64,000 bases of DNA from a virus (lineage: Duplodnaviria > Caudoviricetes). The stretch spans positions 1 to 64,000 of the IMG/VR virus record IMGVR_UViG_3300028591_000074; one strand, 5' to 3'. Position numbers and translations under genes: made by a program. Under the pieces are notes generated by a model. The model saw only the letters and a list, made by a program, of their open reading frames with translations. It was not told where the DNA came from and did no database searches. The stretch's first letter is position 1. Every line of letters starts with the position of its first letter. Shown piece by piece: positions 2,322 through 20,441 of this stretch.

Positions 2322-2325
2322 ATTG

Positions 2326-3036: not shown

Positions 3037-3076
3037 GATGATACCTCCATGTATTAATCCCTAATAGTAATAAAGG

Positions 3077-3683: not shown

Positions 3684-3688
3684 TTATC

Positions 3689-4387: not shown

Positions 4388-4425
4388 AAGCCTACCTCAA
4401 ATTTCGCGTTCTAACATCATAATGT

Positions 4426-5301: not shown

Positions 5302-5319
5302 AAGTATTCACCTCGTTTC

Positions 5320-5859
5320 TTAAATTCTGTACTTCAGATGCATGTAAGCCTTACATATTCTGTTTGCATGAAAATTTTCGCCATATTGATACACAATAGG
5401 AACTACAAACCCATCGGTAGCGAGTAGCATCTGCATACATACATCTTGTGTTCGTGTATATCCTTGTTCTATGCTTATGATGATTCTATGCATCCAATCT
5501 GTAGGAAATCTCATCTGTATTCTAGCAATATTTCTTCCTAACTCATACATGCAGATTGGCTGATCGCTACTGCTATTTGCAAAATACATTGACAGTATGT
5601 CTGCTTGTTCTAACCACCGAAACTCCCACGAAATCTGGGTTGATGCTGCAGATGGATCATTGATAGGAAAATTGTCACGTCTCGGATTGAACAAAACAAG
5701 ATCATCAAGTGAACCTGATTCAGGAGATGTATCCCAGTCCTGAAGTGTACGTATAACATTAGACTGCCAATCAGAACAATTTGTGATTCCACCTGCAAGA
5801 AACACTAAGATGTCAGTTCCTTTAGCAGTGTATTGTTCAGGTGCTGTAATTATCTTCAT
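5320..5859 (-). CDS. nucleoside 2-deoxyribosyltransferase-like protein
   Basis: VFLAGGI...WQ...NPRR...QISWE...PICMYELG pattern. Confidence 0.75.
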   Translation of the reverse strand: MKIITAPEQYTAKGTDILVFLAGGITNCSDWQSNVIRTLQDWDTSPESGSLDDLVLFNPRRDNFPINDPSAASTQISWEFRWLEQADILSMYFANSSSDQPICMYELGRNIARIQMRFPTDWMHRIIISIEQGYTRTQDVCMQMLLATDGFVVPIVYQYGENFHANRICKAYMHLKYRI

Positions 5860-5896
5860 ATATCGTCTCCTTACTTTAGAATTCTAGAACAACTAC

Positions 5897-6409
5897 TCAA
5901 TCCTCATAAATAGAATCTATTATGTTGCACTGGAACATTATCTCTTTAGCCCAGTTACGAATCTGCTTCACATCTGAAGTAGTCTGATTTGGTACACATT
6001 TCTGAATAGATTTCTTGATAGCATCTGTCAGTTCATCAATCCGTCTGTATGCAACAATGTGTGCAGAAGTCAGATTCGTTGACGCATCATGTAATTCTTT
6101 ATCGTGCAAAAGTTTATCTTGCTGTACAAACCAACTATTTCCAATAGTGTCTTTTGGTTTACCAACATAAAATATAGTTACCAAAAAATCATTCTTTTCA
6201 GAATCAAATCTGCAAATGGCACCGAGTTCACCAGATGAAAGAAGACGTAAGTTATCACCGTCGCAAGCAATGATTATATGTCCACATTCACAACCTACAG
6301 TAATTGAATCGTTCTTTTGTTCAGAATATATGTAAGTTTCTTCCGGAAAAATCTCATTACAACCAGTTACAAAAAGATTTCTAGATGTATTATTTCGAAT
6401 TAGCATCAA
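5897..6409 (-). CDS. hypothetical protein
   Basis: ORF track. Confidence 0.65.
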   Translation of the reverse strand: MMLIRNNTSRNLFVTGCNEIFPEETYIYSEQKNDSITVGCECGHIIIACDGDNLRLLSSGELGAICRFDSEKNDFLVTIFYVGKPKDTIGNSWFVQQDKLLHDKELHDASTNLTSAHIVAYRRIDELTDAIKKSIQKCVPNQTTSDVKQIRNWAKEIMFQCNIIDSIYED

Positions 6410-6421
6410 ATCACCACCTTA

Positions 6422-6799
6422 CTAAAATTCAACATCAATGCTGAAAGAAAATGTACAATCACCGGAAACATATCCGTAATTATCATATTCTTCTAAGACC
6501 TCTAGTAGCTTACACTTCGAACAAGCACAATAGTTTTCATAACGATCACACTCGCTATCAACATGGTCATCGGAACAATTCTTGCCAGTATGCTTAAATA
6601 ATGGAAGAATGATGTCGCGGTGTTCTGCAATGTGGCGAACTAAATCATCGGACTCTTCCTGTTTCAAATTTTGTAGATCATTATGCAATTCTGCAATAGT
6701 TGCAGATATAGAATCCATTGTCTTTTCATGATATTTCGTCAATTGGATTTTCTTACCTACCAATTCATCAATCTGCTTGCGAATTTCATTTTCTGTCAT
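6422..6799 (-). CDS. hypothetical protein (coiled coil + Cys cluster)
   Basis: ORF track, GAGGT SD. Confidence 0.7.
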   Translation of the reverse strand: MTENEIRKQIDELVGKKIQLTKYHEKTMDSISATIAELHNDLQNLKQEESDDLVRHIAEHRDIILPLFKHTGKNCSDDHVDSECDRYENYCACSKCKLLEVLEEYDNYGYVSGDCTFSFSIDVEF

Positions 6800-6812
6800 G
6801 ACCTCACCTACC

Positions 6813-7874
6813 TCAAAATATTATATCAGAATCGTCAATTTTTGTATTTTTCAGATACTTTTCCGTGTATAATACTCCCCAATTTGCTTTCATCAGGAAC
6901 TCATCAATTCGATTGTAATCCGGTTTTGGTGGAAGTACGGAATGTTCTTTTGCATGTTCCAATCTGGATTCATAATCGTGAACCATATCAAAGAATTCCT
7001 TTGTAGGCTTCCCATCTTCACCAAGATACTTACCGTTTCGAATATCCATGAGCAAATCATGTTCTTTCTCACGATAAGTTACAATCTTACCATCAAGTAA
7101 CAAATCTTCACACATCATATAAAGACGAAGCAGATGCATAGAATGTTTTGCAATCTTACCATGTGCAAGTGCATGATCATTCCGCTTACTGTTCTTATTA
7201 TACTCACGTATAACTGTATTAAGGGAATTAAGTACAGATGCAAGATCTTCTGCCGGATAATCTTCTACATTAAGATCAAGAACAATCTTACCATCTTTCA
7301 GCTTCACATCTACATCATGAATGTTGTGCTGATATTCTAAGGTATCATGCATACCATTCAAAGTTTTTACAATGTGTGCATTATATTCTTCTTCAGACAT
7401 TGCAACCAGTGATTTCTGCTGAAGCCGATACATCTGCTGATTTGCGTATCCCATAAATGATCCGATACATTTATTAGACAAGAACATATCGTAGTTGTTC
7501 AGGAGATCTACGCCCAAGGAACTCATATACAAGTAGTGTTCTGGTTTTAACCCTAGCATCTCAATTACATTAGGGTTGCAGTTAGTAAGCAGACTAACCA
7601 CTTTCTTCAGTGAGTAAATCGTTGTGTCTGTTGGTTCATTACAAACCTGCTCAAATCCCCTATTAAGTAAAATATCCAGTGCAGAATTCAATGCTATCCC
7701 TCGAATATCAACATCTGAGGTTTCAATATTTGTACCGTAGGCGTAAGAACCGCCGAGTCCAACAAGAATAGGATCATGCAATTCCGGAGTTGTATCTAAA
7801 AATTCATACGGAGATTCATCAACAGAAATATTTAGTTTCCTCAGAGAACCTATTACATATTCTTTAAGTTTCAT
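6813..7874 (-). CDS. Pol-beta superfamily nucleotidyltransferase (RNA-repair associated, RlaP-like)
   Basis: GGSYAYG...SDVDIRG catalytic motif, NPNVIEML, KHSMHLLRL; overlaps Pnkp-like gene. Confidence 0.82.
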   Translation of the reverse strand: MKLKEYVIGSLRKLNISVDESPYEFLDTTPELHDPILVGLGGSYAYGTNIETSDVDIRGIALNSALDILLNRGFEQVCNEPTDTTIYSLKKVVSLLTNCNPNVIEMLGLKPEHYLYMSSLGVDLLNNYDMFLSNKCIGSFMGYANQQMYRLQQKSLVAMSEEEYNAHIVKTLNGMHDTLEYQHNIHDVDVKLKDGKIVLDLNVEDYPAEDLASVLNSLNTVIREYNKNSKRNDHALAHGKIAKHSMHLLRLYMMCEDLLLDGKIVTYREKEHDLLMDIRNGKYLGEDGKPTKEFFDMVHDYESRLEHAKEHSVLPPKPDYNRIDEFLMKANWGVLYTEKYLKNTKIDDSDIIF

Positions 7875-10089
7875 CTTTCACCTCCGTAGTCTTCATGTAT
7901 TTGTAAAACTCATTTCTCAAGTAAATGATATCTCTTGGTATCAAGTCTCTCTGCTCTCTTGTTTCCGCATCATTGTATAACTTCTGACAGAACGAATAGA
8001 ACATGTTAGCTTCGGGAGTAGTAAGTGACCCAGTTCTCCGGAAATATCCAGATCTAAGAACTTCATGTGCTACACCCCTCATAAATTTCCAAAAGTTGTA
8101 GTACTGAAGTTTTATCTTAACCATTTTACCTTCTGCATCTTCTATAACAAAACCCTCAATGATTTTTCCGTTGTATTCATAACACTCAGAAGTTACTTCG
8201 TTATACCAATCAACAAAATCACCCCAGTTAGCAATCTCAAATGCCTTTTCTTTGACCTTAATCTTGAGTGCAGATCCGATATTCAGAAGATTTTCGTAAG
8301 GAATCTGCTCAAACTTCATTGTGTTTTTCACTATAGTGAGTAAAAACAGTTCTGATTTTGGATACTCAATAACATGAGGATCATTCTTCATATCTACACA
8401 TTCAAAAACAAATGAAACATCCTTGTCCTTACATATTTCTTTCATCCTATCTCTAGAAGGTTCAGACATTTTAGAGAACAGCATATTTTTGAATAGTTCG
8501 GCATAGTTTCCTGTAGGATTAGATTTTGTAGTTATGAAAAGATCGTCATTATCTGCATCATAGGATACAATTCCGAGGAACCCATTTTCCTTGACATAAC
8601 AAGTTACAGGAAAATTCAATGAATACTTCAACATGTCGAACTTTGTTTCCAGCATTTCGTTGATATTGAAGAACTTATCATATGCCCGAGCAGCAACTTT
8701 CATACGTAACATGTCAATATAAAGGCCTCTTGCCTTTACTGTCTGCTCGTTCCAAACCTTGTCATAGAAAGCATCTCGTGTGAAATTGAATGAGGAAATA
8801 TTGCCGAACTGCTTCTCAGTTACATGCTTGTTTGCTCGCAGAGCTAACACCACATCTGCAATGCTACTGATGTTGAGTTCAGTCTGTGTAGCAATTTTCT
8901 CAGGTTCTTTAAAAACATTGTTTTTGATCTCAACTTCATTAAACCCATTATGTGTCAGTTCGAGAATCCGGAGATGTCCACCAAACTCAACATCATTCTC
9001 AAGATCATAAACTCGGCCTCTAAGTTTCATAGGAGAAGCCTTTGTGTTTCTGTGTCCAAAAATCTGATACTGAGAATCTGAAGTAGTTCTCATCCAGGAA
9101 TCTGCTACAGTTTCGTAATCGTCATAATTACCAACACCTTTAATCATCTGCTCTGTGGACATGAAGCTCAAGTTATCCGGAAGTGCTGCAATACCTGCAT
9201 GAGATACAAATACATCCTTATTATCATACTTGTACCATGCACACTGTCCCAACTTGCGATACAGCTGACGAATCGCTTTTACATCAACATGTGCTTCCTC
9301 AAGCTGCTTCCGAGTAACCAGTTCGAATTCTTTGGACCTTCCTACTCCACCATGTGCATAGATCCAAAGCCATCTTTCATGGTTGCCTTCGAGAACAAGT
9401 ACATTCTTCTTGTTAATAATCTGAGTGAACCAATTTACAACTTCAACATTCTCAATTCCGCGATCAATCAAATCGCCTACGAAGATGTACATTGTGTTGT
9501 CATCAAGTCCATCTTTGAAATACTCCATAAGTGCTGTATAGCAACCATGGATATCTCCAACATGCACAACCTTATCATAACTTGAAAAATCAACCTGACG
9601 CATCCAAATAGTATCAAGCTCCTCAGGCTTGATCACCTTTACACCGGAAGGAATCTTCTGAGTACCAAATCTTGAATACATCTTATCAATGACATACTCC
9701 GGAACCTGCTTGAGTACAGGTCTAGATGCATTCCGTCGCTTACACTCTTCGATAGGAAGATCTGTCATGTCAATACAGAAAATTCGGTAACGATAGGTAT
9801 CGCACATCTCTTTGTAACGGTTGATTTCAACTGTCTTAGAGTTTGTAGCATCAATAACAGTGAATTCACCATTACGCATACGAATCTCCAAAAGTTTGAA
9901 AAGCATGTTCCAAACATCCTTTTCATTCTTCTGACTGATCTCTACCCTGCCATCTGCGGTCTGCTGTGCTGACTGACACTGAAGCCGAATTTCATCAGCT
10001 GAAAGTGCATAAGGACGCAATCCATTCTGATCGATGAATGTTGATTTTCCGCACCCAGGTGCTCCTCTAAATAACAAAAGTATTCTCAT
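7864..10089 (-). CDS. Pnkp-like RNA repair enzyme: polynucleotide kinase + metallophosphoesterase + RNA ligase
   Basis: GAPGCGKS P-loop; GDIHG/GDLIDRG/GNHE phosphoesterase; KENG and EGFVI...KIK ligase motifs. Confidence 0.88.
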   Translation of the reverse strand: MRILLLFRGAPGCGKSTFIDQNGLRPYALSADEIRLQCQSAQQTADGRVEISQKNEKDVWNMLFKLLEIRMRNGEFTVIDATNSKTVEINRYKEMCDTYRYRIFCIDMTDLPIEECKRRNASRPVLKQVPEYVIDKMYSRFGTQKIPSGVKVIKPEELDTIWMRQVDFSSYDKVVHVGDIHGCYTALMEYFKDGLDDNTMYIFVGDLIDRGIENVEVVNWFTQIINKKNVLVLEGNHERWLWIYAHGGVGRSKEFELVTRKQLEEAHVDVKAIRQLYRKLGQCAWYKYDNKDVFVSHAGIAALPDNLSFMSTEQMIKGVGNYDDYETVADSWMRTTSDSQYQIFGHRNTKASPMKLRGRVYDLENDVEFGGHLRILELTHNGFNEVEIKNNVFKEPEKIATQTELNISSIADVVLALRANKHVTEKQFGNISSFNFTRDAFYDKVWNEQTVKARGLYIDMLRMKVAARAYDKFFNINEMLETKFDMLKYSLNFPVTCYVKENGFLGIVSYDADNDDLFITTKSNPTGNYAELFKNMLFSKMSEPSRDRMKEICKDKDVSFVFECVDMKNDPHVIEYPKSELFLLTIVKNTMKFEQIPYENLLNIGSALKIKVKEKAFEIANWGDFVDWYNEVTSECYEYNGKIIEGFVIEDAEGKMVKIKLQYYNFWKFMRGVAHEVLRSGYFRRTGSLTTPEANMFYSFCQKLYNDAETREQRDLIPRDIIYLRNEFYKYMKTTEVKDET

Positions 10090-10143
10090 AGTCCTAACCC
10101 TCCTTTTGGATACTTGATACTTATTCCTTACAAGTATAAGTAT

Positions 10144-10167
10144 ATACTAATATGTATAAAAAGTCAA
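10144..10167 (-). promoter_or_regulatory. sigma-A type promoter for tRNA-repair operon (approximate bounds)
   Basis: TTGACT-17-TATACT. Confidence 0.7.
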
Positions 10168-10215
10168 TACACAAAATAAAAAATATTTTTACAAGATTCT
10201 TTCACGGATGACTTC

Positions 10216-10515
10216 CTACATGTTTTTCAACTCTTCTTGTATTTCTGTGTACCTTCTATCAAGAACTTCGCTGATTGCTGATTTCAGCTGCGCACGAGTT
10301 ATATCATCAAGATGGACAAAACTCAATTCGTAGTAATCTGATCCTATAGAGTTATAACAAAATCCACTATCAGTGATTCGATACCACTTGCCAAATTTTT
10401 TCACTTTGCCATACATTTTAGGATACGGATATCCAATACATTTGATCCGCAGATTCCATATTGTATCTATTGAATCCTTCAGATTGTTTGCGTATTCTAA
10501 TCTTTCCTCAGTCAT
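10216..10515 (-). CDS. hypothetical protein
   Basis: ORF track. Confidence 0.7.
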   Translation of the reverse strand: MTEERLEYANNLKDSIDTIWNLRIKCIGYPYPKMYGKVKKFGKWYRITDSGFCYNSIGSDYYELSFVHLDDITRAQLKSAISEVLDRRYTEIQEELKNM

Positions 10516-10575
10516 ATCTATTCCCCTACAAATTTATAATTGACACTTACATATATCATAACGATTTAGTAAACT

Positions 10576-10606
10576 AAAAATCCGGCACAGGCGATTCTGT
10601 GCCGGA
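10576..10606 (-). terminator. intrinsic terminator
   Basis: TCCGGCACAG/CTGTGCCGGA hairpin + T-tract. Confidence 0.8.
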
Positions 10607-10758
10607 CATATTAAGTTAGTATATCTCAAATGCCTTGGTTTTCGGCATTGGATATCAAAATTACTTCTTATCTTTCTTTCCATCATCTTAAACAGATTGC
10701 AATTTATCTGTTTCCTTTAGATATATCTGATTCTGTTACTGTATACGTTTATGCACTA

Positions 10759-11049
10759 CTATCTGCCTTTAACATATCCATCGTCATCAATGTTATCAAC
10801 TAACGTAGTACCTCTAGCACTGTAACTTAATAATATAGTTTCGATCTTGTACCCACCATTTTTCTTAGCATACTGAACAGCTGCAAGCCATGCACCTTCG
10901 CTAGTATCATAGTCATGATCATCAAACACAGCTAAGATATACCCAGCACGATCAAACACAATATAGTTGGTTGTAGTAGTATCGCCAATATAAAACGAAT
11001 ACTTATCAACTAAATCCCTTTCTGCACTAGATTTTACATATTTCTTCAT
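10759..11049 (-). CDS. hypothetical protein with MKKYVKSS motif
   Basis: Start moved to 11049 behind GGAGG SD. Confidence 0.75.
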   Translation of the reverse strand: MKKYVKSSAERDLVDKYSFYIGDTTTTNYIVFDRAGYILAVFDDHDYDTSEGAWLAAVQYAKKNGGYKIETILLSYSARGTTLVDNIDDDGYVKGR

Positions 11050-11186
11050 TTCTTTTTCTCCTCCCATCCGCTTAACCGGATAGCAATACCTTGTTTCTGT
11101 GCTTTCTTCTTAGCATCTTTACCATAGTATATCTTTCCGGTTTTACCCCATCGGTATCCACCGGATTTTGTTTTGTGTACTGGCAT
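11046..11186 (-). CDS. small basic protein (46 aa, MPVHKTKSGGYRWGKTGKIY...)
   Basis: Below ORF-track cutoff; GAGGT SD, coupled to next ORF (ATGA overlap). Confidence 0.7.
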   Translation of the reverse strand: MPVHKTKSGGYRWGKTGKIYYGKDAKKKAQKQGIAIRLSGWEEKKK

Positions 11187-11202
11187 AGTTGTTTACCTCA
11201 AA

Positions 11203-11523
11203 TCAATAAGATATTGTATCCACATACTCGCCACATTCCGGACATCGACCATCCTCTTCAAGAGGTATAGCACATCTTGGACAAAATGTTTGTCGATCAG
11301 AATCTTTCGGAAGTATGCTGGATCTATCATTAGCAATCTGTGCGTTTACAGATGTCACATAATAATGTGGATACATCTCTCTGGCCCGGTACTTTGCATT
11401 ATTACAAGCTTTGGCTTCAGTATCGGCAGTTGTTTCTATGTATGTTTCCAAGAAATCTTGATGTTCATAATCTGCAAGTCTTACAGTACATAAATAAGTT
11501 GCGGATCTTATGTATCTCTTCAT
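11203..11523 (-). CDS. hypothetical protein, MKRYIRSA motif and C-terminal Zn ribbon
   Basis: CPRC...CPEC; GAGGTG SD. Confidence 0.75.
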   Translation of the reverse strand: MKRYIRSATYLCTVRLADYEHQDFLETYIETTADTEAKACNNAKYRAREMYPHYYVTSVNAQIANDRSSILPKDSDRQTFCPRCAIPLEEDGRCPECGEYVDTISY

Positions 11524-11531
11524 AAAACACC

Positions 11532-11848
11532 TCACTCAAAATTCGCCCTAAAATGTACATAAAATACATCATCTACACAATCATTTTCTGCATCTACCAT
11601 ATAGATGTCTTTTAAATCCGGTATATACTGCACACAATCTTCTACGAAGTTTGATAAATCCTGGAAGTAATCTTCCCAATCGCCATTCCCGTTTAATCCC
11701 CCCATAGGGAAAATTCTACAAAGGTTTTACCGAAGCGTTCTACTTCATTAAAAGATAGATTTGTGTCAGGATAATCTCTTTTAGATAAAACGGTGTTTAT
11801 ATCAGATTCAAAATTATTTTCTTTTGAACATTTTATGTAGCGTTTCAT
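11532..11848 (-). pseudogene. MKRYIKCS-motif gene frameshifted at a G6 tract
   Basis: Frame stops at 11693 but coding continues (GLNGNGDWEDYF...) to 11532 if one G is added at 11698-11703. Confidence 0.65.
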
Positions 11849-11881
11849 ATCAATCCTCCGGATTGTACAATTCATAGATTA

Positions 11882-12172
11882 TTATCGTTTCTCTAAAACT
11901 AAAATATCATCTGAGTATATGCCAATTTGATGCAAATTTCCTGAATTATCAAAATAATGTAAAAAGAACAAATCATCAGAATATGTAGGTCTACTTACCC
12001 AACCAAATCCACCAAAACACTTATCATCAACACAAACATTGTACTTTACGGTATCATAACTATCGGACTGATACTTTCTCTTATCACTAATACTCATTCT
12101 AAAATATCTATAAACAGTTTTGGTTAAGGTATCAGTACCTTCATATTCAGATGCTCTCACATATAACTTCAT
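11882..12172 (-). CDS. hypothetical protein with MKLYVRAS motif
   Basis: ORF track, AAGGAG SD. Confidence 0.75.
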   Translation of the reverse strand: MKLYVRASEYEGTDTLTKTVYRYFRMSISDKRKYQSDSYDTVKYNVCVDDKCFGGFGWVSRPTYSDDLFFLHYFDNSGNLHQIGIYSDDILVLEKR

Positions 12173-12193
12173 AATTTAATTCTCCTTAATCTA

Positions 12194-12466
12194 TTATGAA
12201 TCGTTTGTCTGGATATTACCATCATACTTACTGAGTATCCCACGCAAAATCTCGGCATGATTCAATTCATCAGATATTATCTCTCGGATATGATCTATCG
12301 ATTCTCGATCATTATGTAGTTCAAAGAATGGAATCAACTTACCATATCCTTATATAGCATCCCACCCTCCTTGCAGATTCAATGCAATCTGAGATGCCGT
12401 GGTAAACTTATTGTCATTATCTAATACTATTGCAATATTAAAAGACGATTTAATATATCGTTTCAT
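12194..12466 (-). pseudogene. ferritin-like small protein (MKRYIKSS motif) with internal TAA
   Basis: ...WDAI*GY...IISDELNHAEIL...; in-frame TAA at 12350-12352. Confidence 0.65.
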
Positions 12467-12578
12467 AAAATATACCGAAACCCTTCTAAATGATTGTAAG
12501 CAGACTTATATTTATATTAAAGGTTTTCTAAATATTATAACGAAAAGTCGGTAGCAATTATACTACCGACTTAAATGT

Positions 12579-13142
12579 TTAATCCTTATCACCTAAAATA
12601 GATTCCAAATGATTGATAATTGTTTCGGATGAATGTCCGTTACGTTTTGCATCTTCTATATATCCACGAATATTCATCAATGTCGAAAAATCTCGTAAGA
12701 TTTCCTGCAAGGTTTTATATTGACAGCAAATATTATTATATCTGACATAATCATCCGGTTGATATTGTTTACAAACTTCATAAATAGGTATATCAGACAT
12801 AGTATCAGATTCCTTTTTGATATATTCCTGTGGTTTTACCATATCATTGAACTCGACAGAAATTATCTTATTGGATAATTCAGATTTAATCTGTTCCCGA
12901 ATTTCATCCTTTAAACTAAAGTTGTACTTAAGATATCTTTCAACCCATTCACCAATATAACTACCTGATGATGTCTGTGAATCAAGGTGCTTAAATACCT
13001 GTTCAATAGCACGTTCAACTTTATTTGTGATTTCCTTTTCTACTATATCCTTGATTGATTTTTGGTTCAACCCTGCATCTGCTAAAAGTTGACTAATTTG
13101 TAATCTCAATTCCCGTTTTTCTTCATTATACATTTTCATCAC
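12579..13142 (-). CDS. hypothetical protein
   Basis: ORF track; terminator hairpin 12545-12572 downstream. Confidence 0.7.
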   Translation of the reverse strand: MMKMYNEEKRELRLQISQLLADAGLNQKSIKDIVEKEITNKVERAIEQVFKHLDSQTSSGSYIGEWVERYLKYNFSLKDEIREQIKSELSNKIISVEFNDMVKPQEYIKKESDTMSDIPIYEVCKQYQPDDYVRYNNICCQYKTLQEILRDFSTLMNIRGYIEDAKRNGHSSETIINHLESILGDKD

Positions 13143-13199
13143 CTACCAATTCTTTATAAACTTTGAGAAATTCGTTTTAAATGATTTTATAACGAATTT

Positions 13200-13637
13200 C
13201 TAATCATCACTAATTATTAGCCAACAAAACTCACCAAGATGCGATGAAAGTTCTGAATCAATATTATGACCACCAACGGTGAACTGTTCAAGATCAAGTC
13301 CAGTAATAGTCCATTCGGAATATCCTACATAATCAAGTTGAAGTTTCAATTCACCAGATATATCTGAACAACCTCCAAAGGTTTTAAACAAAAATTCTGT
13401 TTGAACTTGATCCAAAGTACATTCTTTGTCTGAATAGAAGATAGAAACTGCGATTTTCGGCAGATAAGTTATTTTCTGTCCAAGTCCTTTGTTATACCGC
13501 TGATATCCGAAAGTTTTCTGAATGGAATCCGGTATGGATTCTATCCTATAACTAGGATCATCATCATGTTCCGCTAAACCTATAACATCATCGCAATCTT
13601 TATGTAGCCAACCATGCAATTCTAATCTCATTTTCAA
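13200..13637 (-). CDS. hypothetical protein
   Basis: ORF track, AGGAGG SD. Confidence 0.7.
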   Translation of the reverse strand: MKMRLELHGWLHKDCDDVIGLAEHDDDPSYRIESIPDSIQKTFGYQRYNKGLGQKITYLPKIAVSIFYSDKECTLDQVQTEFLFKTFGGCSDISGELKLQLDYVGYSEWTITGLDLEQFTVGGHNIDSELSSHLGEFCWLIISDD

Positions 13638-13744
13638 TTTCCTCCTACAGTTTATAACGATTTATCAAATTAAAAAATCAGCATACCAAATATGGTATGC
13701 TGATTATATAATTATACTTAAATCAAACTACAAACCGCATCAAC

Positions 13745-14719
13745 TTATTCATCATAATCATCTATCAGATAGCCATTCTCAGATGCATCATCATAGACTG
13801 AATAAAGGTATTCTCGTTCATAGATATCTGGATCAAGAGCCTGAGAAAACTTATACATTACATACATAGCAACCTTACGATCTAAATCATCACTTTCGAT
13901 GAATTCTGCTTTCGTATATGGCATACTACTAATGAATCCCGGATGACTTCCAAACTTATTTTCTGTATAATCAAAGAATGTGTCATCAATTTCAGATTCC
14001 ATAATTTCTACAATATTAGAAGGAACATCAAAACTGAAATCAATCCAATCAGTACTATAATTGTAGAATTGTGGGCTTTCAAACTTATCTACAGTCAGAT
14101 TGCTATATGGAATTCCAATATCGTCTAATGCTTCCTTGATATAATCATAGGCTTTATCCACCATCAACTGCTTGAACTCATCCCACATATCTTCATCGAC
14201 TTCATATTGAAATTCGGTACCATAAGTATCTGGAATGATAATCGGGCAAATATCAGTATTCAGATGTATTCTTACAGAACCACCATTAGAATCTGCGCAA
14301 ATATCTGTAGAAGATTCAATAGAATCTGACGTAATCATATCATAAAATGGCTGCCAATATCTAAGTAATTTATCAACACAGGAATCTACGTCATTCGGAT
14401 CAATTTCAATTTCTGTATCGATAACCTTATCAGTTCCAACTTCTACTGGAAGTTTCCAATCACTGTAATTATCTGGCAGCCCATATTTACCATAATCCGG
14501 TGCAACTGCAACCTTACCCATCAATGTACCATCTACCCAGGAAAATACTGCACCATAAACATCACCAAGATACTTACCTAAATAAGCATAATATGTATCA
14601 CCGAATTTAGGGTTTTCACCAGTCCCAATAGCACTATCAATGCAACTATATAGTCTATCCCTGATGACATTTGGGATAGAATTGCACAGTACTTTTGTAG
14701 TTTTAATATATCTTTTCAT
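13745..14719 (-). CDS. acidic two-domain protein with MKRYIKTT motif (putative virion protein)
   Basis: AGGAG SD, AACCTTTAAT upstream, terminator 13673-13704 downstream. Confidence 0.8.
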   Translation of the reverse strand: MKRYIKTTKVLCNSIPNVIRDRLYSCIDSAIGTGENPKFGDTYYAYLGKYLGDVYGAVFSWVDGTLMGKVAVAPDYGKYGLPDNYSDWKLPVEVGTDKVIDTEIEIDPNDVDSCVDKLLRYWQPFYDMITSDSIESSTDICADSNGGSVRIHLNTDICPIIIPDTYGTEFQYEVDEDMWDEFKQLMVDKAYDYIKEALDDIGIPYSNLTVDKFESPQFYNYSTDWIDFSFDVPSNIVEIMESEIDDTFFDYTENKFGSHPGFISSMPYTKAEFIESDDLDRKVAMYVMYKFSQALDPDIYEREYLYSVYDDASENGYLIDDYDE

Positions 14720-14763
14720 AAACAGTCTCCTATAAATGAGTTATATAGATATTAAAGGTTAAG

Positions 14764-14964
14764 TCAATCACAGGAACTCCCCTCATAATACTCACACATA
14801 TATTTACCATCCATCTCATATACAGTACAACTGTATACACCATACCCACAAAGTTGTGAATCAGTAAATATCTTTTTCTTATCTTCGGGAGTCACGTACC
14901 CGCGATTCTCCATAGCATGATCGTAAATTTCCTTACTGATTTCTTTATGGCAACAATTCAACAT
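14764..14964 (-). CDS. hypothetical protein
   Basis: start MLNCC behind GGGGG SD. Confidence 0.65.
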   Translation of the reverse strand: MLNCCHKEISKEIYDHAMENRGYVTPEDKKKIFTDSQLCGYGVYSCTVYEMDGKYMCEYYEGSSCD

Positions 14965-14977
14965 ATTTATTCCCCCC

Positions 14978-15208
14978 TTATAGATCACTGTTTAACATAC
15001 CATGTTCTTTCAACATACGAATTGCTTCTGAAATCATGACTTCCTGCAAATCTGTAGCAAGATAGGTAATAAATGTACCTGACGCATCCGTATGTAAGGT
15101 ATACCTACCATCAATGAGTACACCAGCTTCACCAAGTACGGACATAATCGGTACAATCGGTGTTGTTATTTTAATTTTCAGTTTTCGCGTCCTGAAGAAC
15201 ATATCCAT
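14978..15208 (-). CDS. hypothetical protein
   Basis: start MDMFF behind GAGGTG SD. Confidence 0.65.
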   Translation of the reverse strand: MDMFFRTRKLKIKITTPIVPIMSVLGEAGVLIDGRYTLHTDASGTFITYLATDLQEVMISEAIRMLKEHGMLNSDL

Positions 15209-15212
15209 GAAC

Positions 15213-15587
15213 TCACCTCGTCTCCGGATAAAATCCCATAATTGCATAATACCGATTCTTATATCTTTCATGAACTGATCTACTTGCATACATCTTATAG
15301 TAGTCATACATATCTTCCGGCAGAGCATCAATAGAATCCACTTCCGGAATCTCTTCAATGTCACCATGGTACTTGAGATAACCTCTGCCAGTTCTTTGTA
15401 CACGAAGATCCTGCCTATAAATATTCCACATAGTTGCAGGAATAGACCAATCCATATCATCAATATATCCTACTGACTTTAATACATCCCGAATGAACTG
15501 GTTTGTTGTGTTAAGTTCCTTGCGAATATCTTTAATAGATACCCCATCTTCAAACAATTCAATGATTCGTCTTTCTTTCTCATACAT
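15213..15587 (-). CDS. putative HTH DNA-binding protein
   Basis: start MYEKERR behind AAGGAGG; GVSIKDIRKELN HTH-like. Confidence 0.6.
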   Translation of the reverse strand: MYEKERRIIELFEDGVSIKDIRKELNTTNQFIRDVLKSVGYIDDMDWSIPATMWNIYRQDLRVQRTGRGYLKYHGDIEEIPEVDSIDALPEDMYDYYKMYASRSVHERYKNRYYAIMGFYPETR

Positions 15588-15690
15588 AATACTATCCTCC
15601 TTGAAATGGAATTTATTGTAACTACATAGTATCATACATACTGTGACAAATTTGTAAATATAAAATTTATAAATAGGAGAACTTTGTACA

Positions 15691-16059
15691 TTAAAATGTA
15701 AGTGCATCCTTGATAGACTGCAGCTTGTTCCGGTAAGTATCACGATCATGCTCAATTTCAGCGATAATCTGTTTCAACCGGAATACTTCATTTCTATATT
15801 CGTTTGCAAGGTTCTGATTATAATTCCGGCTATCTGTCATAACCTGCAAATCCTTGCTAACATCTGCCAATGTCCTTTCAAGTTCTTCTGCATGTTTCCT
15901 ACGAACATTTGCATACCGGATAATGCCGCCATCGCGTTTCCACTTGGCACACCACTTATCCTTGTCAAGATCACTCTCCATATATTGAGATTCAATTTCC
16001 TTGTACTCTTCAGCAGTAGGATCAAACCCTGTTCTCTCGATAAATTCACTTCTCATCAT
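15691..16059 (-). CDS. hypothetical coiled-coil protein
   Basis: ORF track, GGAGG SD. Confidence 0.75.
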   Translation of the reverse strand: MMRSEFIERTGFDPTAEEYKEIESQYMESDLDKDKWCAKWKRDGGIIRYANVRRKHAEELERTLADVSKDLQVMTDSRNYNQNLANEYRNEVFRLKQIIAEIEHDRDTYRNKLQSIKDALTF

Positions 16060-16073
16060 AGTAGTAACCCTCC

Positions 16074-16223
16074 TTATACATTATAAACTCTACAATTATC
16101 AGGATTAGCAATCCACTTGCCAATTCTCGGATTTTCAATTACCAGATATCCATCGGGTCTAACTTCACGGACAATTGCCAAATAATCCATGTTTATCACA
16201 TACATACCTACTGAAAACTTCAT
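16074..16223 (-). CDS. small hypothetical protein (49 aa)
   Basis: GGAGG SD, MKFSVGMYV...; TTGACA-17-TATACT promoter upstream. Confidence 0.6.
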   Translation of the reverse strand: MKFSVGMYVINMDYLAIVREVRPDGYLVIENPRIGKWIANPDNCRVYNV

Positions 16224-16312
16224 AATGTTTACCTCCATATTGTGTTTTCCTCTATCTGTATATAAGTATATACTATAATATCACATATGTCAACATATTT
16301 TTTATAAAATAT

Positions 16313-16350
16313 AAAAAAAATCTGTGATGATATACAACCATCACAGATTC
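16313..16350 (-). terminator. terminator ending tRNA array
   Basis: AATCTGTGATG/CATCACAGATT hairpin + T-tract. Confidence 0.85.
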
Positions 16351-16354
16351 TTAC

Positions 16355-16443
16355 CGCCTACGGACAGACTCGAACTGCCACACCGGATTTCCGATTACTC
16401 AGAGATTAGCAATCTCCTGCCTTCCCATTAGGCTTACATAGGC
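16355..16443 (-). tRNA. tRNA-Ser(GCT)
   Basis: GGAGA-TTGCTAA-TCTCT arm, long variable arm. Confidence 0.9.
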
Positions 16444-16450
16444 AATATAG

Positions 16451-16539
16451 TGGGCCGGGTAGGATTCGGACCTACAATGTTTACCACATGGGTGACGGAT
16501 TTACAGTCCGCTGACTTCACCAATTTGTCGCACCGACCC
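16451..16539 (-). tRNA. tRNA-Tyr(GTA)
   Basis: GCGGA-CTGTAAA-TCCGT arm. Confidence 0.9.
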
Positions 16540-16544
16540 ATAAT

Positions 16545-16631
16545 CGCCGTGGCAGAGAATCGAACTCTGGCTTCCATAACAAGGAAGGACTGTTTTCAGG
16601 ACAGTGTAGTGAGCCAACCACAATCCACGGC
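16545..16631 (-). tRNA. tRNA-Ser(TGA), atypical (C33, A8)
   Basis: ACTGT-CCTGAAA-ACAGT arm, long variable arm, G73. Confidence 0.75.
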
Positions 16632-16656
16632 ATTTATACAACTTATTTTGAGAAAT

Positions 16657-16728
16657 GGTGACTACTGGGAATCGAACCCAGATCAATGGAATCACAATCC
16701 ACTGTATTAACCATTGTACTATAGTCAC
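16657..16728 (-). tRNA. tRNA-His(GTG)
   Basis: GTGGA-TTGTGAT-TCCAT arm; C73; no encoded G-1. Confidence 0.9.
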
Positions 16729-16730
16729 AG

Positions 16731-16804
16731 TAGTCGCAGTGGGAATCGAACCCTACATCTCCGGATTGAAAGCCCGGTGTCGTAAACCATTTGACTATGC
16801 GACC
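16731..16804 (-). tRNA. tRNA-Glu(TTC)
   Basis: CCGGG-CTTTCAA-TCCGG arm. Confidence 0.9.
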
Positions 16805-16811
16805 ATTATGA

Positions 16812-17036
16812 TTAAATTGATTTCCTTATGATAATATCATCTATTGCTACACCAAAGGCATCAGCAAGGATTACCATGTTATCTATGGTTGGCATGGAAT
16901 CACCACGGAACCACTTGAATATTGCCTGCGGAGTACCGAACCCGAAGATACCTTGAACATCAGATGTTTTCATATTCTTAGACTTCATGATATTCTTTAT
17001 ATTTGTTCCAGTTGCTACTGTATCTATTACCATCAT
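16812..17036 (-). CDS. XRE-family HTH transcriptional regulator
   Basis: TPQAIFKWFRGDSMPTIDNMVILA; start at 17036 behind AAAGGGG. Confidence 0.85.
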   Translation of the reverse strand: MMVIDTVATGTNIKNIMKSKNMKTSDVQGIFGFGTPQAIFKWFRGDSMPTIDNMVILADAFGVAIDDIIIRKSI

Positions 17037-17066
17037 GATGCTATATCCCCTTTCAGTAATTTTGAG

Positions 17067-17142
17067 TACCCACGATGGGATTTGAACCCACACCATATAC
17101 ATACTTTAAATATGTTGCTTCTTCCTATTGCGCTACGTGGGC
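17067..17142 (-). tRNA. tRNA-Leu(TAA), short variable arm
   Basis: ACATA-TTTAAAG-TATGT arm, A73. Confidence 0.8.
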
Positions 17143-17147
17143 AGATA

Positions 17148-17236
17148 TGCCGGATAAGGGACTCGAACCCTTATGAGAGTTTTATACCTCAGTAGATTTT
17201 GAATCTACCATGTCTAACCAATTTCATCAATCCGGC
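17148..17236 (-). tRNA. tRNA-Leu(CAA)
   Basis: GTAGA-TTCAAAA-TCTAC arm, long variable arm. Confidence 0.9.
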
Positions 17237-17242
17237 AAATAG

Positions 17243-17317
17243 TACCCCCGGCAGGAATCGAACCTGCATATCTACTGATCCTAAGTCAGTCGCCTTTACC
17301 AGTTTGACCACGAGGGC
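17243..17317 (-). tRNA. tRNA-Leu(TAG), short variable arm
   Basis: ACTGA-CTTAGGA-TCAGT arm. Confidence 0.88.
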
Positions 17318-17321: not shown

Positions 17322-17359
17322 AAAAAGACCATCTATACGCTGTGTACAGATGGTCTTTT
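17322..17359 (-). terminator. attenuator terminator A
   Basis: AAAGACCATCTGTAC-ACAGC-GTATAGATGGTCTTTTT. Confidence 0.85.
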
Positions 17360-17395
17360 AGTTCTTCTGAAGAGTATATTTCAATAGATGAACTA

Positions 17396-17497
17396 TCAAA
17401 TCTTACCATTATCTGCACACGCAAATTGGAAAGCCAATGATGAATAGAGGCTTTCGGAAAGTTCGCTATGCAGATATAATGATCTGAATGTAGTCAT
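17396..17497 (-). CDS. leader peptide A (MTTFRSLYLHSELSESLYSSLAFQFACADNGKI)
   Basis: AAAGGGG SD; 16-residue run only of S/L/Y/H/E; followed by terminator. Confidence 0.85.
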   Translation of the reverse strand: MTTFRSLYLHSELSESLYSSLAFQFACADNGKI

Positions 17498-17525
17498 CGC
17501 TGTTACCCCTTTATTTGATAATTCG

Positions 17526-17554
17526 ATTATAATATAAATTCTTATAAATTGCAA
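17526..17554 (-). promoter_or_regulatory. sigma-A type promoter for tRNA block A
   Basis: TTGCAA-17-TATAAT. Confidence 0.75.
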
Positions 17555-17573
17555 CTATACTATTGGTATATTT

Positions 17574-17611
17574 CAAGTTAGTTGCAAGTTAGTTGCAAGT
17601 TAGTTGCAAGT
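17574..17611. repeat. 11-bp tandem repeat (CAAGTTAGTTG) x3.4
   Basis: direct reading. Confidence 0.9.
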
Positions 17612-17684
17612 ACAGACGGAGAGATTCGAACTCTCAACCAAAGGCTTAGAAGACCTTTGCGCTGATCCATTGCGCCACGCCTGT
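17611..17684 (-). tRNA. tRNA-Arg(TCT)
   Basis: AAGGT-CTTCTAA-GCCTT arm. Confidence 0.9.
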
Positions 17685-17690
17685 ATGAAT

Positions 17691-17762
17691 CTCCCACGGC
17701 AGGACTCGAACCTGCAACCACTCGGTTAACAGCCGATTTCTCAACCATTGAGATACGTGGGA
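17691..17762 (-). tRNA. tRNA-Asn(GTT)
   Basis: TCGG-CTGTTAA-CCGA arm. Confidence 0.9.
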
Positions 17763-17767
17763 ATACA

Positions 17768-17837
17768 AGTACCGCATCAGAGTTGAACTGATCTCTATAG
17801 TTTTGCAGACTACATGCTTCCCGGAAGCAGACGGTAC
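17768..17837 (-). tRNA. tRNA-Cys(GCA)
   Basis: GTAGT-CTGCAAA-ACTAT arm, U73, short D loop. Confidence 0.82.
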
Positions 17838-17844
17838 ATTATAT

Positions 17845-17915
17845 CAGCCGATTCTGGAATTGAACCAAAATCTGATGAGTCAGAATCATCTGTGTTACCA
17901 TTACACCAATCGGCC
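17845..17915 (-). tRNA. tRNA-Gln(CTG)
   Basis: GATGA-TTCTGAC-TCATC arm. Confidence 0.9.
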
Positions 17916-17954
17916 ATGCAACTTATTTGTCCAACACGTACAGACAAGTTATAG

Positions 17955-18025
17955 CAGGTCCTGCACGTTTCGAGCGCACACCATCAAGGTTGGAGCTTGA
18001 TATGCTACCATTACACCAAGGACCC
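17955..18025 (-). tRNA. tRNA-Trp(CCA)
   Basis: TCAAG-CTCCAAC-CTTGA arm; T-loop CTCGAAA. Confidence 0.85.
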
Positions 18026-18033
18026 GGAGAAAG

Positions 18034-18106
18034 TGGATGTGGAGAGGTTTGAACTCTCGGCTTGATGCTTAAGAGGCAACTGCTCTTCCAACTGAGCTAC
18101 ACATCC
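18034..18106 (-). tRNA. tRNA-Lys(CTT)
   Basis: TGC-CTCTTAA-GCA arm. Confidence 0.88.
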
Positions 18107-18112
18107 ATATAC

Positions 18113-18173
18113 AGGACGCATTTTGGTTTCAATGATTAAAAGTCATTTCCAAAAGATTTGCTGTATGCGTCCC
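18113..18173 (-). ncRNA. armless tRNA-Lys(TTT)-like hairpin
   Basis: GGACGCA/TGCGTCC closing stem, TTTTGG/CCAAAA, AATGA-CTTTTAA-TCATT anticodon-like arm; no D/T arms. Confidence 0.55.
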
Positions 18174-18176
18174 AAA

Positions 18177-18248
18177 TGGGTGTGACAAGATTCGAACTTG
18201 CGGTATACAGGTTAAAAGCCTGTTGCCATACCACTTGGCTACACACCC
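18177..18248 (-). tRNA. tRNA-Lys(TTT)
   Basis: ACAGG-CTTTTAA-CCTGT arm. Confidence 0.9.
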
Positions 18249-18253
18249 AAAAA

Positions 18254-18327
18254 TTCAAGGTGGTGGATTCGAACCACCGGCAATCTGCGTATCAGACAGA
18301 CACTCTAACCAACTGAGTTAACCTTGA
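18254..18327 (-). tRNA. tRNA-Ile(GAT)
   Basis: TCTGT-CTGATAC-GCAGA arm. Confidence 0.9.
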
Positions 18328-18328
18328 G

Positions 18329-18400
18329 TGGTCTCGGATAGTTTCGGGCTATCGACACTCTGGGCTTCAACCAGATGCTCTTCCTCTGAGCTACGAGACC
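18329..18400 (-). tRNA. tRNA-Phe(GAA)
   Basis: TCTGG-TTGAAGC-CCAGA arm; T-loop CCCGAAA. Confidence 0.85.
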
Positions 18401-18406: not shown

Positions 18407-18450
18407 AAAAAGCCATGAGGCTGATGCTGACTGTCAGACCCATGACTTTT
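18407..18450 (-). terminator. attenuator terminator B
   Basis: AGTCATGGGTCTGA...TCAGCCTCATGGCT-TTTT. Confidence 0.75.
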
Positions 18451-18486
18451 CTTCTCTATAAGGTATAAGATAGAAAATATGTTAGA

Positions 18487-18588
18487 TCATGTAAGACAGT
18501 CTATAGATTCAGCACAATTAAACCAGTTTTTATAACAAAACTGATTTCTAATGTTCTTAATCTGGTTGCTAATAGACTGATACATCAT
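18487..18588 (-). CDS. leader peptide B (MMYQSISNQIKNIRNQFCYKNWFNCAESIDCLT)
   Basis: AAGGAAAGGAG SD; N/Q/I/K/R/F/C/W core; followed by terminator. Confidence 0.85.
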   Translation of the reverse strand: MMYQSISNQIKNIRNQFCYKNWFNCAESIDCLT

Positions 18589-18620
18589 CTTCTTATTATC
18601 TCCTTTCCTTATAGATGTAG

Positions 18621-18693
18621 TTGCAGGGACCGGATTTGAACCGGCAACTTTCAGTTTATGAGACTGAACTGCTTACCATTGCATCACCCTGCG
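18621..18693 (-). tRNA. tRNA-Met(CAT), C1xA72 mismatch (initiator-like)
   Basis: TCAGT-CTCATAA-ACTGA arm. Confidence 0.85.
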
Positions 18694-18699
18694 ATAAAC

Positions 18700-18770
18700 T
18701 TGAAAATGTCAGATTCGAACTGCGCCTCATGCTCCCAAGGCAAGCGTGCTACCATTACACCACATTCTCA
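18700..18770 (-). tRNA. tRNA-Pro(TGG)
   Basis: TGC-CTTGGGA-GCA arm; ends approximate. Confidence 0.8.
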
Positions 18771-18778
18771 ATAATTAA

Positions 18779-18850
18779 CGATCTAGCAGAGAATCGAACT
18801 CTGATCTCCGGATAGACAGTCCGGTGTAATAGCCTTTATACCACAAGACC
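18779..18850 (-). tRNA. tRNA-Asp(GTC)
   Basis: CCGGA-CTGTCTA-TCCGG arm. Confidence 0.9.
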
Positions 18851-18854
18851 GTAT

Positions 18855-18925
18855 AGCTTCCACTCGGATTCGAACCAAGATTTACTGATTACAAATCAGT
18901 AGTCCTGCCATTAGACGATAGAAGC
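18855..18925 (-). tRNA. tRNA-Thr(TGT)
   Basis: ACTGA-TTTGTAA-TCAGT arm. Confidence 0.9.
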
Positions 18926-18930
18926 AGAAT

Positions 18931-19705
18931 ATTTGTCTTGAGATTACAGACAAACGTAACACTCATTAAAACCCTTATTTGTTAGGCTTATATCCACGTA
19001 CCTTTCAATACGTTAGTGCTATGCGTACCTTTAAGGTGGCTATACCTTCATAATTCAGAACTACTCGACCTACTTTTCGACCTTAAAAGAGTTGTACGGA
19101 CTCTCCTAATGTCTACTTGTTCGATCAAACAGGTTCACCTTGCGAGTTCCCCTGTTCCACATTACATTACTGCTGTGGACTTAACGCATTTTCATTCTGA
19201 ACCCCTACTGACTTTTGCTTTTTGGCGATTTTTGTTGGACTTGAACCAACTACCTTTTGTTTAGAAGACAAATACTCTACCCAATGAGCTAAAAAATCAG
19301 TATGTTGGATGTAGATGTGCAGTAGGTTTAGTTTCGTAATCTTTTGAACTACAAAATGCTAAACACCTACGATGTACGTTCCTTTGCATCGTACTTGTAC
19401 TGCCATTTCTGACTGGATATCACCCTTGTTTGCTAAACTCGGATTTATTACCCATTAAATGTCTAACTACCATATCCGTTTGTTTTGCATGTTAGTTAGC
19501 CCTTGCGGAGCCTTGTTCCCATCAGTTGACCTAAAACAAGTTTCTCACTAACCAAACAAATATAGCATTGAATCCACCTATGGTGAACTTAGATTCCTTT
19601 TCAGAATCTATTAAGACAAGTATTGCATACTCTTACCGTTTCCGGCGATAGGCTTACCTTCCTACCTTTCGATATATTACTATACCATATAGGCGTATGC
19701 ACCAT
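18931..19705 (-). ncRNA. large structured ncRNA, GOLLD-like, with embedded tRNA-Arg
   Basis: ~775 nt non-coding, many hairpins with GNRA-type loops (GCAA, GAAA), terminal TGTCTGTAATCTCAAGACA hairpin, inside tRNA array. Confidence 0.55.
19223..19298 (-). tRNA. tRNA-Arg(TCT), second copy, CCA encoded
   Basis: TTTGT-CTTCTAA-ACAAA arm; GATTTTT/AAAAATC-G-CCA. Confidence 0.85.
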
Positions 19706-19709
19706 TGTA

Positions 19710-19782
19710 AGCAGATAGTGAGAATCGAACTCACATCCTTAGTTTGGAAGACTAATATAATAAACCGTTATACGATACCTGC
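19710..19782 (-). tRNA. tRNA-Gly(TCC)
   Basis: TTAGT-CTTCCAA-ACTAA arm. Confidence 0.9.
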
Positions 19783-19854
19783 ATGTGCGAGTGAGAGAAG
19801 TGCCTGTTCCCCTCACTCAGATTTTAATTTTTTGTAATCAGTAGAAACTGATAG

Positions 19855-19926
19855 TAGACCATATAGGAGTCGAACCTATATCTCTTCATTCGTAGTGAAG
19901 TGTTCTATCCGTTATACTAATGATCT
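19855..19926 (-). tRNA. tRNA-Arg(ACG)
   Basis: CTTCA-CTACGAA-TGAAG arm. Confidence 0.9.
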
Positions 19927-19928
19927 AG

Positions 19929-20001
19929 TGCAGATAGTAGGGGTTGAACCTACAACCACTTCCTTGTAAGAGAAGCACTCTCCCAGTTGAGTTATATCTG
20001 C
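19929..20001 (-). tRNA. tRNA-Val(TAC)
   Basis: CTTCT-CTTACAA-GGAAG arm. Confidence 0.9.
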
Positions 20002-20007
20002 AAATAG

Positions 20008-20080
20008 TGGAACCGATGGGGATTGAACCCACAACCTTCTGCTTGCAAAACAGATGCTCTCCCAATTGCGCTACGGCCCC
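20008..20080 (-). tRNA. tRNA-Ala(TGC)
   Basis: TCTGT-TTTGCAA-GCAGA arm; G3:U70. Confidence 0.92.
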
Positions 20081-20087: not shown

Positions 20088-20127
20088 AAAAATCCGTCTT
20101 ACCCTATGTAGGATATAGACGGATTCT
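20088..20127 (-). terminator. attenuator terminator C
   Basis: AATCCGTCTATATCCTACATAGGGTAAGACGGATTTTT. Confidence 0.85.
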
Positions 20128-20160
20128 TCTATGAGGTGTAACTTATGAAGAGATTTTCCA

Positions 20161-20331
20161 CTACCTTCGTCTATATCCTATGTACTTGGCGACTTTTCGA
20201 TTCCATCCAGTTCTTCCTGTGGCGATAGCATCTGGATCTACCGGGGCATCAAATTTGCATACGAAACTAAACCCGCGTGTTGCAGGATGATCCACGATCA
20301 TTGTGAAGTTGATAGTTTCGTAAATCTTCAT
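20161..20331 (-). CDS. leader peptide C (56 aa, MKIYETINFTMIVDHPATRG...DAPVDPDAIATGRTG...RRR)
   Basis: AGGAG SD before ATG 20331; rich in A/V/R/G/T/D/P/M; followed by terminator. Confidence 0.82.
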   Translation of the reverse strand: MKIYETINFTMIVDHPATRGFSFVCKFDAPVDPDAIATGRTGWNRKVAKYIGYRRR

Positions 20332-20412
20332 AATAATTCTCCTAAAAAATTTAGTGCCTATATCTCCATCCGATAACACAAAATGGAGAGACAGGCACTT
20401 CTCTCTGGTAGT

Positions 20413-20441
20413 ATAGTAACATATTGTGGATTAGATGTCAA
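20413..20441 (-). promoter_or_regulatory. sigma-A type promoter of tRNA array
   Basis: TTGACA-17-(TG.)TACTAT. Confidence 0.75.

Follow-up and report, generated by a model that had tools for sequence, protein, structure and literature searches.

Results

Transcription of tRNA genes in a large gut phage is probably controlled by a ribosome-dependent attenuator, with the GOLLD RNA that lies among these genes an optional passenger. In the window (the whole stretch of 64,000 nucleotides that was analysed), the region ahead of tRNA block C, termed leader C, was found to contain a conserved promoter and Shine-Dalgarno (SD) sequence, an open reading frame (ORF) enriched in cognate amino acids, an intrinsic terminator and a covarying antiterminator. 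An initial annotation had read this region as an attenuator, and our analysis supports that reading, as both the pairing and the composition bias are conserved among relatives and the ORF is unlike a stable protein.

Phage, host and tRNA array

The 64-kb window is the start of a large tailed-phage contig with genes for a tail sheath, portal, DNA polymerase and helicase. Relatives of the tail sheath included a Ruminococcus callidus prophage, contigs binned as Ruminococcus and Clostridia, and some binned as Bacteroidales. Given the R. callidus prophage the host probably belongs to Bacillota, and the tail-sheath relatives point to a probable Clostridia host. A search of the phage for an RNA polymerase beta subunit and sigma region 2 found none, and the host polymerase should therefore serve. 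The contig end (236,000-253,527) duplicates window positions 1-16,920 at 75-98% identity, the copy stopping inside tRNA block A; two strains were probably assembled together, which would inflate the genome length. We also observed a HEARO RNA at 40727-40963, beside an HNH endonuclease ORF, and near the array (4426-10089) a tRNA repair set of Thg1, an RlaP-like nucleotidyltransferase and a kinase-phosphoesterase-RNA ligase fusion.

A total of 26 tRNA genes were found on the minus strand between 16354 and 20080, with one GOLLD RNA among them (ARAGORN, Rfam). The array is sorted into three blocks:

18620-20080, minus strand: tRNA block C, with Ala, Val, Arg(ACG), Gly, Arg(TCT, inside GOLLD), Thr, Asp, Pro and Met (ARAGORN)
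17610-18400, minus strand: tRNA block B, with Phe, Ile, Lys, Lys, Trp, Gln, Cys, Asn and Arg
16354-17317, minus strand: tRNA block A, with three Leu, Glu, His, Ser, Tyr and Ser, and a Cro-like HTH gene inside

The gene at 17066-17142, called tRNA-Phe(AAA) by ARAGORN, is better read as Leu(UAA) with a short variable arm, and is called Leu(TAA) in the related loci L007 and L011. Three 11-nt tandem repeats were observed at 17571-17611, just upstream of promoter A, and the Cro-like HTH gene is located at 16812-17036; these are a possible operator and regulator, and L011 has the repeats without the gene.

Anatomy and composition of leader C

The following features were identified in leader C:

20413-20441, minus strand: sigma-A-type promoter with TTGACA, 17-nt spacing and an extended -10 (TG-n-TACTAT), matching 10/12 plus TG
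20352-20405, minus strand: 5' hairpin (z -4.6), its first 15 nt (20405-20391) invariant
20339-20343, minus strand: SD sequence AGGAG, 7 nt before the ATG
20161-20331, minus strand: leader ORF of 56 codons
20260-20322, minus strand: conserved RNA structure within the ORF, consisting of a stem (20322-20313/20269-20260) and a hairpin (20286-20272), then a U-rich run
20206-20250, minus strand: core run of the leader, with 14/15 residues from block C
20168-20180, minus strand: antiterminator strand of 13 nt at the end of the ORF (duplex -20.2 kcal/mol)
20088-20125, minus strand: intrinsic terminator, its 5' arm (20121-20109) being the switch strand

Both promoter hexamers are nearly invariant in seven relatives, with a variable spacer between them, and transcription probably starts near 20406. 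A purine-rich SD precedes the leader ORF in all relatives, and 28 homologues of the ORF were found. The terminator (20125-20091 plus a run of five U at 20092-20088) has a predicted energy of -21.6 kcal/mol (z -5.5, 0/200 shuffles) and, by sequence and folding, sits directly ahead of tRNA-Ala. The 5' hairpin at 20352-20405 was considered as a terminator and rejected, there being no U run after it in L146 or L150. A T-box riboswitch (RF00230) was likewise rejected, with no Rfam match at the gathering score or at E-values up to 5.

Our recount agrees with the composition given in the initial annotation: 33 of the 56 residues belong to the set A, V, R, G, T, D, P and M, the core (20250-20206) has 14 block-C residues out of 15, and the peptide is without Leu or Gln and holds 18 of the 20 amino acids. 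The complementarity described there is also exact, with 20180-20168 being a 13-nt reverse complement of 20121-20109 whose end is 6 nt short of the final base of the stop codon. Of 15,132 segments of the core's length in the phage's own proteins, 15 reached 14/15; for leader C alone, 164 of 200,000 random 8-residue sets did equally well. The core run thus has an empirical probability of ~0.001 against either the phage proteome or random amino-acid sets. The composition bias of the whole ORF, taken alone, is modest (p about 0.008). Matches of 13 nt to the terminator arm were found in 7 of 10,136 genome windows, windows over the locus itself included. The match of leader to block is at the amino-acid level; the codon-level fit to block-C anticodons is weak, and the GGT codon is used in leader C of lineages without the GCC-anticodon tRNA.

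Conservation of pairing and reading frame

Conservation of the 13-bp pairing in related phages had been named beforehand as a check on the attenuator reading. In an alignment of 13 loci from about four lineages, 97% of cells were paired and two compensatory pairs were observed, a change from U-A to C-G in L146, L150 and L151 and a change from A-U to C-G in L150. We counted these as two events, since relatedness inflates the shuffle control; as a further control, partners slid by 1-3 columns paired at only 22-53%. A 4-nt insertion in L161-L168 shifts the frame over the antiterminator and alters the peptide tail, and a 12-bp complement and the adjacent stop remain, indicating that the pairing is conserved as RNA and not as peptide. 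All other indels in the body of the ORF have lengths divisible by three. The core differs from that of L001 by eight synonymous and three replacement changes (pS 0.65, pN 0.09). The frame and core residues are therefore important, and the tail is important as a strand for pairing next to the stop. In the attenuator of block B (see below), the terminator arm and its partner were rewired together in L011.

One alternative is a small stable phage protein encoded by the ORF, whose match to the tRNA block and whose pairing would be coincidental. A pN far below pS in the core is what such a protein would show, as is a nearly invariant stretch (PAT-G-F-FVC-F), but the conserved RNA hairpin lies at this same stretch, which also coincides with the four block-B amino acids that are universal. 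Neither Pfam nor PHROG gave a match, AlphaFold returned no confident fold (pLDDT 41, weak evidence given the shallow alignment), a profile search gave only two leader-size proteins, and homologues with readable surroundings all precede this terminator. Together with a C-terminus that tolerates a frameshift in L161-L168, these observations make a protein unrelated to the block most improbable, and this possible refutation, raised in the initial annotation, was not borne out.

The composition bias is retained in the homologous leaders, and their content appears mostly to follow the loss of tRNA genes (Arg, Pro, Ile, Lys, Glu). L146 and L150 are without tRNA-Arg and an intact tRNA-Pro, and the core of their leader C is without R and P. 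Block B of L150 is reduced to Phe, Trp, Cys and Asn, and I, K and R are gone from the core of its leader, while block A of L011 is without Glu and His, as is its leader A. Two exceptions were observed: Gln stays in leader B of L007, L011 and L150 although tRNA-Gln is missing, and the mosaic L007, in which one leader-A type is joined to a different block type, shows no fit.

Several other features were observed in the relatives. In L144 and L151-L160, leader C is intact and the block behind it is reduced to Ala and Val; a long ORF cuts the cluster after these two genes with leader and terminator intact (L151:7220-8866; L144:11248-12568), and this ORF is IS605 TnpB-like in L151-L158. L150 has a decayed tRNA-Pro (L150:3285-3365), and a Leu(UAA) tRNA gene in it is split by a probable intron that contains a LAGLIDADG-like ORF (L150:4388-5660). 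Structured spacers of 100-150 nt between tRNA genes (L001:7555-7659; L007:1081-1187; L162:7320-7467), matched by no tool, are possibly tRNA-like small RNAs. A further structured spacer, ending in a hairpin plus a long U run before tRNA-Asn, has no evident leader ORF (L146:9823-9944).

The leader was also sought in metagenome contigs, which gave nothing new, and blastn against cultured phages matched single tRNAs only. Twenty tRNA regions from more distant tail-sheath relatives had scattered tRNAs and no matched leaders among the matches listed; within this family the system thus seems limited to one clade.

Three leaders for three tRNA blocks

Blocks A and B are each preceded by an SD, a short ORF and a terminator, as is block C:

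18407-18588, minus strand: attenuator B, with a 33-codon leader (18588-18487) and a terminator
17322-17554, minus strand: attenuator A, with its own promoter (17554-17526), a 33-codon leader (17497-17396) and a terminator

The best 15-residue match of each leader to its own block was 14, 14 and 15, compared to 3-9 for the other blocks, and none of 200,000 random amino-acid partitions reached the total match of the three leaders. This diagonal match of leader to block recurs in L001, L007, L011, L150, L161 and L162.

No promoter-like site was found ahead of attenuator B, in contrast to block A, and block B should therefore need read-through of block C. The control of blocks C and B thus looks nested, which would explain why leader C contains block-B residues (Phe, Cys, Trp, Asn) and avoids those of block A: 49 of 55 residues fall in the union of the C and B sets and 6 of 55 in the A set (p 0.0016). 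In L150, 29 of 39 leader C residues belong to its reduced C and B union (p 1e-4). The invariant or near-invariant residues of leader C include three Phe, together with Cys, Trp and Asn, the four block-B isotypes that are kept wherever block B is complete, with the invariance of this stretch partly reflecting the RNA hairpin at the same place.

Modelled switching and timing

Switching was modelled by folding with a 30-nt ribosome mask and a transcript that ended at the base of the terminator stem. In this setting the antiterminator was predicted at 0.93 with a ribosome at codons 8-47 and also held without a ribosome (a read-through default), while the terminator was predicted at 0.84 with a ribosome at codon 50 or later and the stem complete. 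L146, L007 and L144 gave a similar modelled switch. An anti-antiterminator was modelled for leader A, and none was clear for leader C. The earlier proposal that a ribosome at the stop codon masks the antiterminator held in masked folding but failed with the full terminator at equilibrium, where, with the U pairs included, the terminator of the window sequence wins at any ribosome position. The switch would therefore depend on co-transcriptional kinetics, with the antiterminator forming first, as has been described for classical attenuators (PMC1262725).

In the model a lag anywhere before about codon 48 opens the switch, so that the whole ORF would act as the sensor. The modelled sensing window (codons 1 to about 47) is wider than the core, and the leader also covers block-B amino acids. 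Leader C might then be a general sensor of translation speed, opened whenever ribosomes slow down or are missing (through host shut-off, antibiotics or failed initiation), with the amino-acid match serving only to tune it. Modelled read-through with a ribosome at any codon up to 47, or with none, agrees with such a sensor, as do the 18 of 20 amino acids in the leader and the antibiotic-stall attenuators known in B. subtilis (PMC6851288). We nevertheless consider it unlikely, as the three leaders have block-specific cores, residues are lost together with their tRNAs, core amino acids are under purifying selection with synonymous change free, and the Arg-rich tail, with its resemblance to a macrolide-arrest motif, is lost in L161-L168. 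A macrolide-arrest role for this tail was rejected on the same loss.

Timing in the probable Clostridia host is the weak point of the attenuator reading. The B. subtilis polymerase outruns ribosomes in runaway transcription (PMC7858274). Combined with the read-through default of the untranslated leader, this means that leader C needs a polymerase pause, which would synchronise polymerase and ribosome, or it would be permanently open. The hairpin and U-rich run at 20286-20260 within the ORF are a candidate pause site by sequence; the TTNTTT motif of NusG pauses is absent from it. If the polymerase did always outrun the ribosome, the antiterminator would always form and the terminator hairpin would be a processing or 3'-end signal, leaving a constitutively open or vestigial leader. 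Besides the modelled default and runaway transcription, the survival of the leader where most of the cluster is gone is in line with this. Frame-preserving indels, the kept SD, the stop beside the pairing strand and the block-tracking composition, however, all need selection on translation, and candidate His leader-peptide attenuators have been predicted in Eubacteriales (PMC9413887); we therefore judge a constitutively open leader to be very unlikely. For B. subtilis, leader control that involves a pause has been documented (PMC6851288), and this tlrB-type control together with the predicted His leaders (PMC9413887) indicates that the host phylum is no bar to attenuation.

GOLLD RNA and a 5'-end complement

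Two further features of block C were examined:

18935-19705, minus strand: GOLLD RNA, with the Rfam 3' domain at 18935-19371 and the 5' limit placed from the end of tRNA-Gly
19788-19820, minus strand: spacer hairpin ahead of tRNA-Gly (z -5.3), its loop and 3' arm being 19807-19793

The GOLLD 3' domain matched the full Rfam model with 174.5 bits (cut-off 150), a match that covers 18935-19371 and not the leader. GOLLD is downstream of leader C, on the same strand, and no strong promoter-like site precedes it; its control by leader C, as proposed in the initial annotation, is therefore plausible from position. L007, L161 and L163 keep the attenuator without GOLLD. The tRNA within GOLLD (19223-19298) is Arg(TCT) here and Gly(TCC) in L011, L146, L150, L164 and L165, with a similar body and a switched anticodon. 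A 14-nt complement between leader positions 20273-20260 and GOLLD positions 19338-19325 was considered as the cause of conservation and rejected; the leader strand pairs locally, is kept without GOLLD and loses pairs with GOLLD in L011.

The first 15 transcribed bases (20405-20391) perfectly complement 19807-19793 in the spacer hairpin, and the loops are complementary. This complement is kept in 11 loci with G-U variants only, and no compensatory change was observed among them. In silico blocking of these 15 nt did not alter SD access in a consistent way. The arrangement looks like antisense recognition, with feedback or a processing stem as possible roles.

Discussion

We propose that host RNA polymerase starts near 20406 and that a ribosome loads on the 56-codon leader. 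With fast decoding, the ribosome would arrive at codon 50 or at the stop while the terminator is still incomplete and would cover 20180-20168, allowing the terminator to fold and transcription to stop before tRNA-Ala. A ribosome lagging anywhere within roughly the first 47 codons, or no ribosome at all, would leave the 13-bp antiterminator to sequester the 5' arm of the terminator, and block C and GOLLD would be transcribed. Read-through transcripts would then reach attenuator B, so that block B would require both switches to be open. The new tRNAs would speed decoding and re-close the operon, a negative feedback.

The trigger in vivo would be the loss of functional host tRNA, e.g. through tRNA-cleaving defences, and not amino-acid starvation, as extra tRNA could cure the former and could not cure the latter. 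Phage tRNAs are known to rescue infection from a tRNA-cleaving defence (PMC12409363), and the repair set of this phage includes Thg1 and an RNA ligase with kinase and phosphoesterase domains. A more extended reading, which we put forward tentatively as a real possibility, is a tiered feedback sensor of decoding capacity in which the three leaders partition the genetic code and leader C is the master switch for blocks C and B, re-evolving as tRNA genes go. Set off by anti-phage destruction of host tRNA, this sensor would act as an inducible counter-defence and would release GOLLD as well. A second layer of feedback may come from a spacer RNA, cleaved out of the read-through transcript, that pairs with the 5' end of newly made transcripts.

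What phages gain from large tRNA sets is still debated, and rescue from tRNA-cleaving defences is one supported answer (PMC12409363). If our reading is true, phage tRNA genes are a conditional reserve behind sensors of decoding speed, each leader lists the shortages that the phage expects, and attenuation, the textbook control of enzyme operons, extends to tRNA genes. The attenuator reading would also account for the block structure of the array and offers a way to learn when GOLLD, whose function is unknown, is made.

Comparison with known systems

The phage leader covers 8-15 amino acids, unlike the enterobacterial attenuators; classical amino-acid-operon leaders cover one to three. With the enterobacterial attenuators (his, trp, thr, ilvGMEDA, pheST; PMC9413887, PMC1262725) the phage leaders share an SD, a short ORF rich in cognate codons, and a mutually exclusive antiterminator and terminator with termination favoured by a ribosome at the stop. 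The enterobacterial devices control enzyme genes, whereas the phage device controls tRNAs and a large noncoding RNA, and the phage-encoded arrangement of three attenuators that partition the code, two of them in series, is unlike that of enterobacterial operons. Leader C further differs in being without a clear anti-antiterminator and in its modelled default of read-through when untranslated.

Closer to the probable host, the same device is predicted for the His leaders of Firmicutes (B. cereus group, Peptostreptococcaceae, Erysipelotrichales; PMC9413887), which differ from the phage leaders in serving one amino acid and a biosynthetic operon on the host chromosome. In B. subtilis tlrB (yxjB; PMC6851288), leader translation controls a terminator in Bacillota and a polymerase pause can supply the timing, but the system responds to antibiotic-induced arrest, and it is the ribosome itself that blocks the terminator. 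T-boxes (RF00230) share the reporting of uncharged tRNA by terminator/antiterminator switching in Bacillota; unlike leader C they bind tRNA directly, with no ORF and one specificity. GOLLD has been described as a phage RNA in the vicinity of tRNA islands that in some cases carries a tRNA in the linker (RF02032; bioRxiv 10.1101/2024.12.08.627333), and upstream leader control is not mentioned in the portions of that preprint available to us.

Our search for literature on leader-peptide control of tRNA genes found no description, with most subscription papers outside the search. A matching layout was confirmed by sequence in phage phiCbK (L179, JX100813), where a leader, a terminator and a tRNA block that matches the leader occur at L179:2541-2770 and 4340-4503. 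One leader, gp083, is rich in S, L, A, K and P and precedes an annotated terminator and a Pro/Lys/Leu/Ala/Ser block, while a second, unannotated leader with an F/V/Q/I run precedes a terminator and a Phe/Val/Ile/Gln block. The attenuation device is of a known kind, and its target, breadth and nesting are new; phiCbK offers a cultured system in which leader control of tRNA blocks can be tested.
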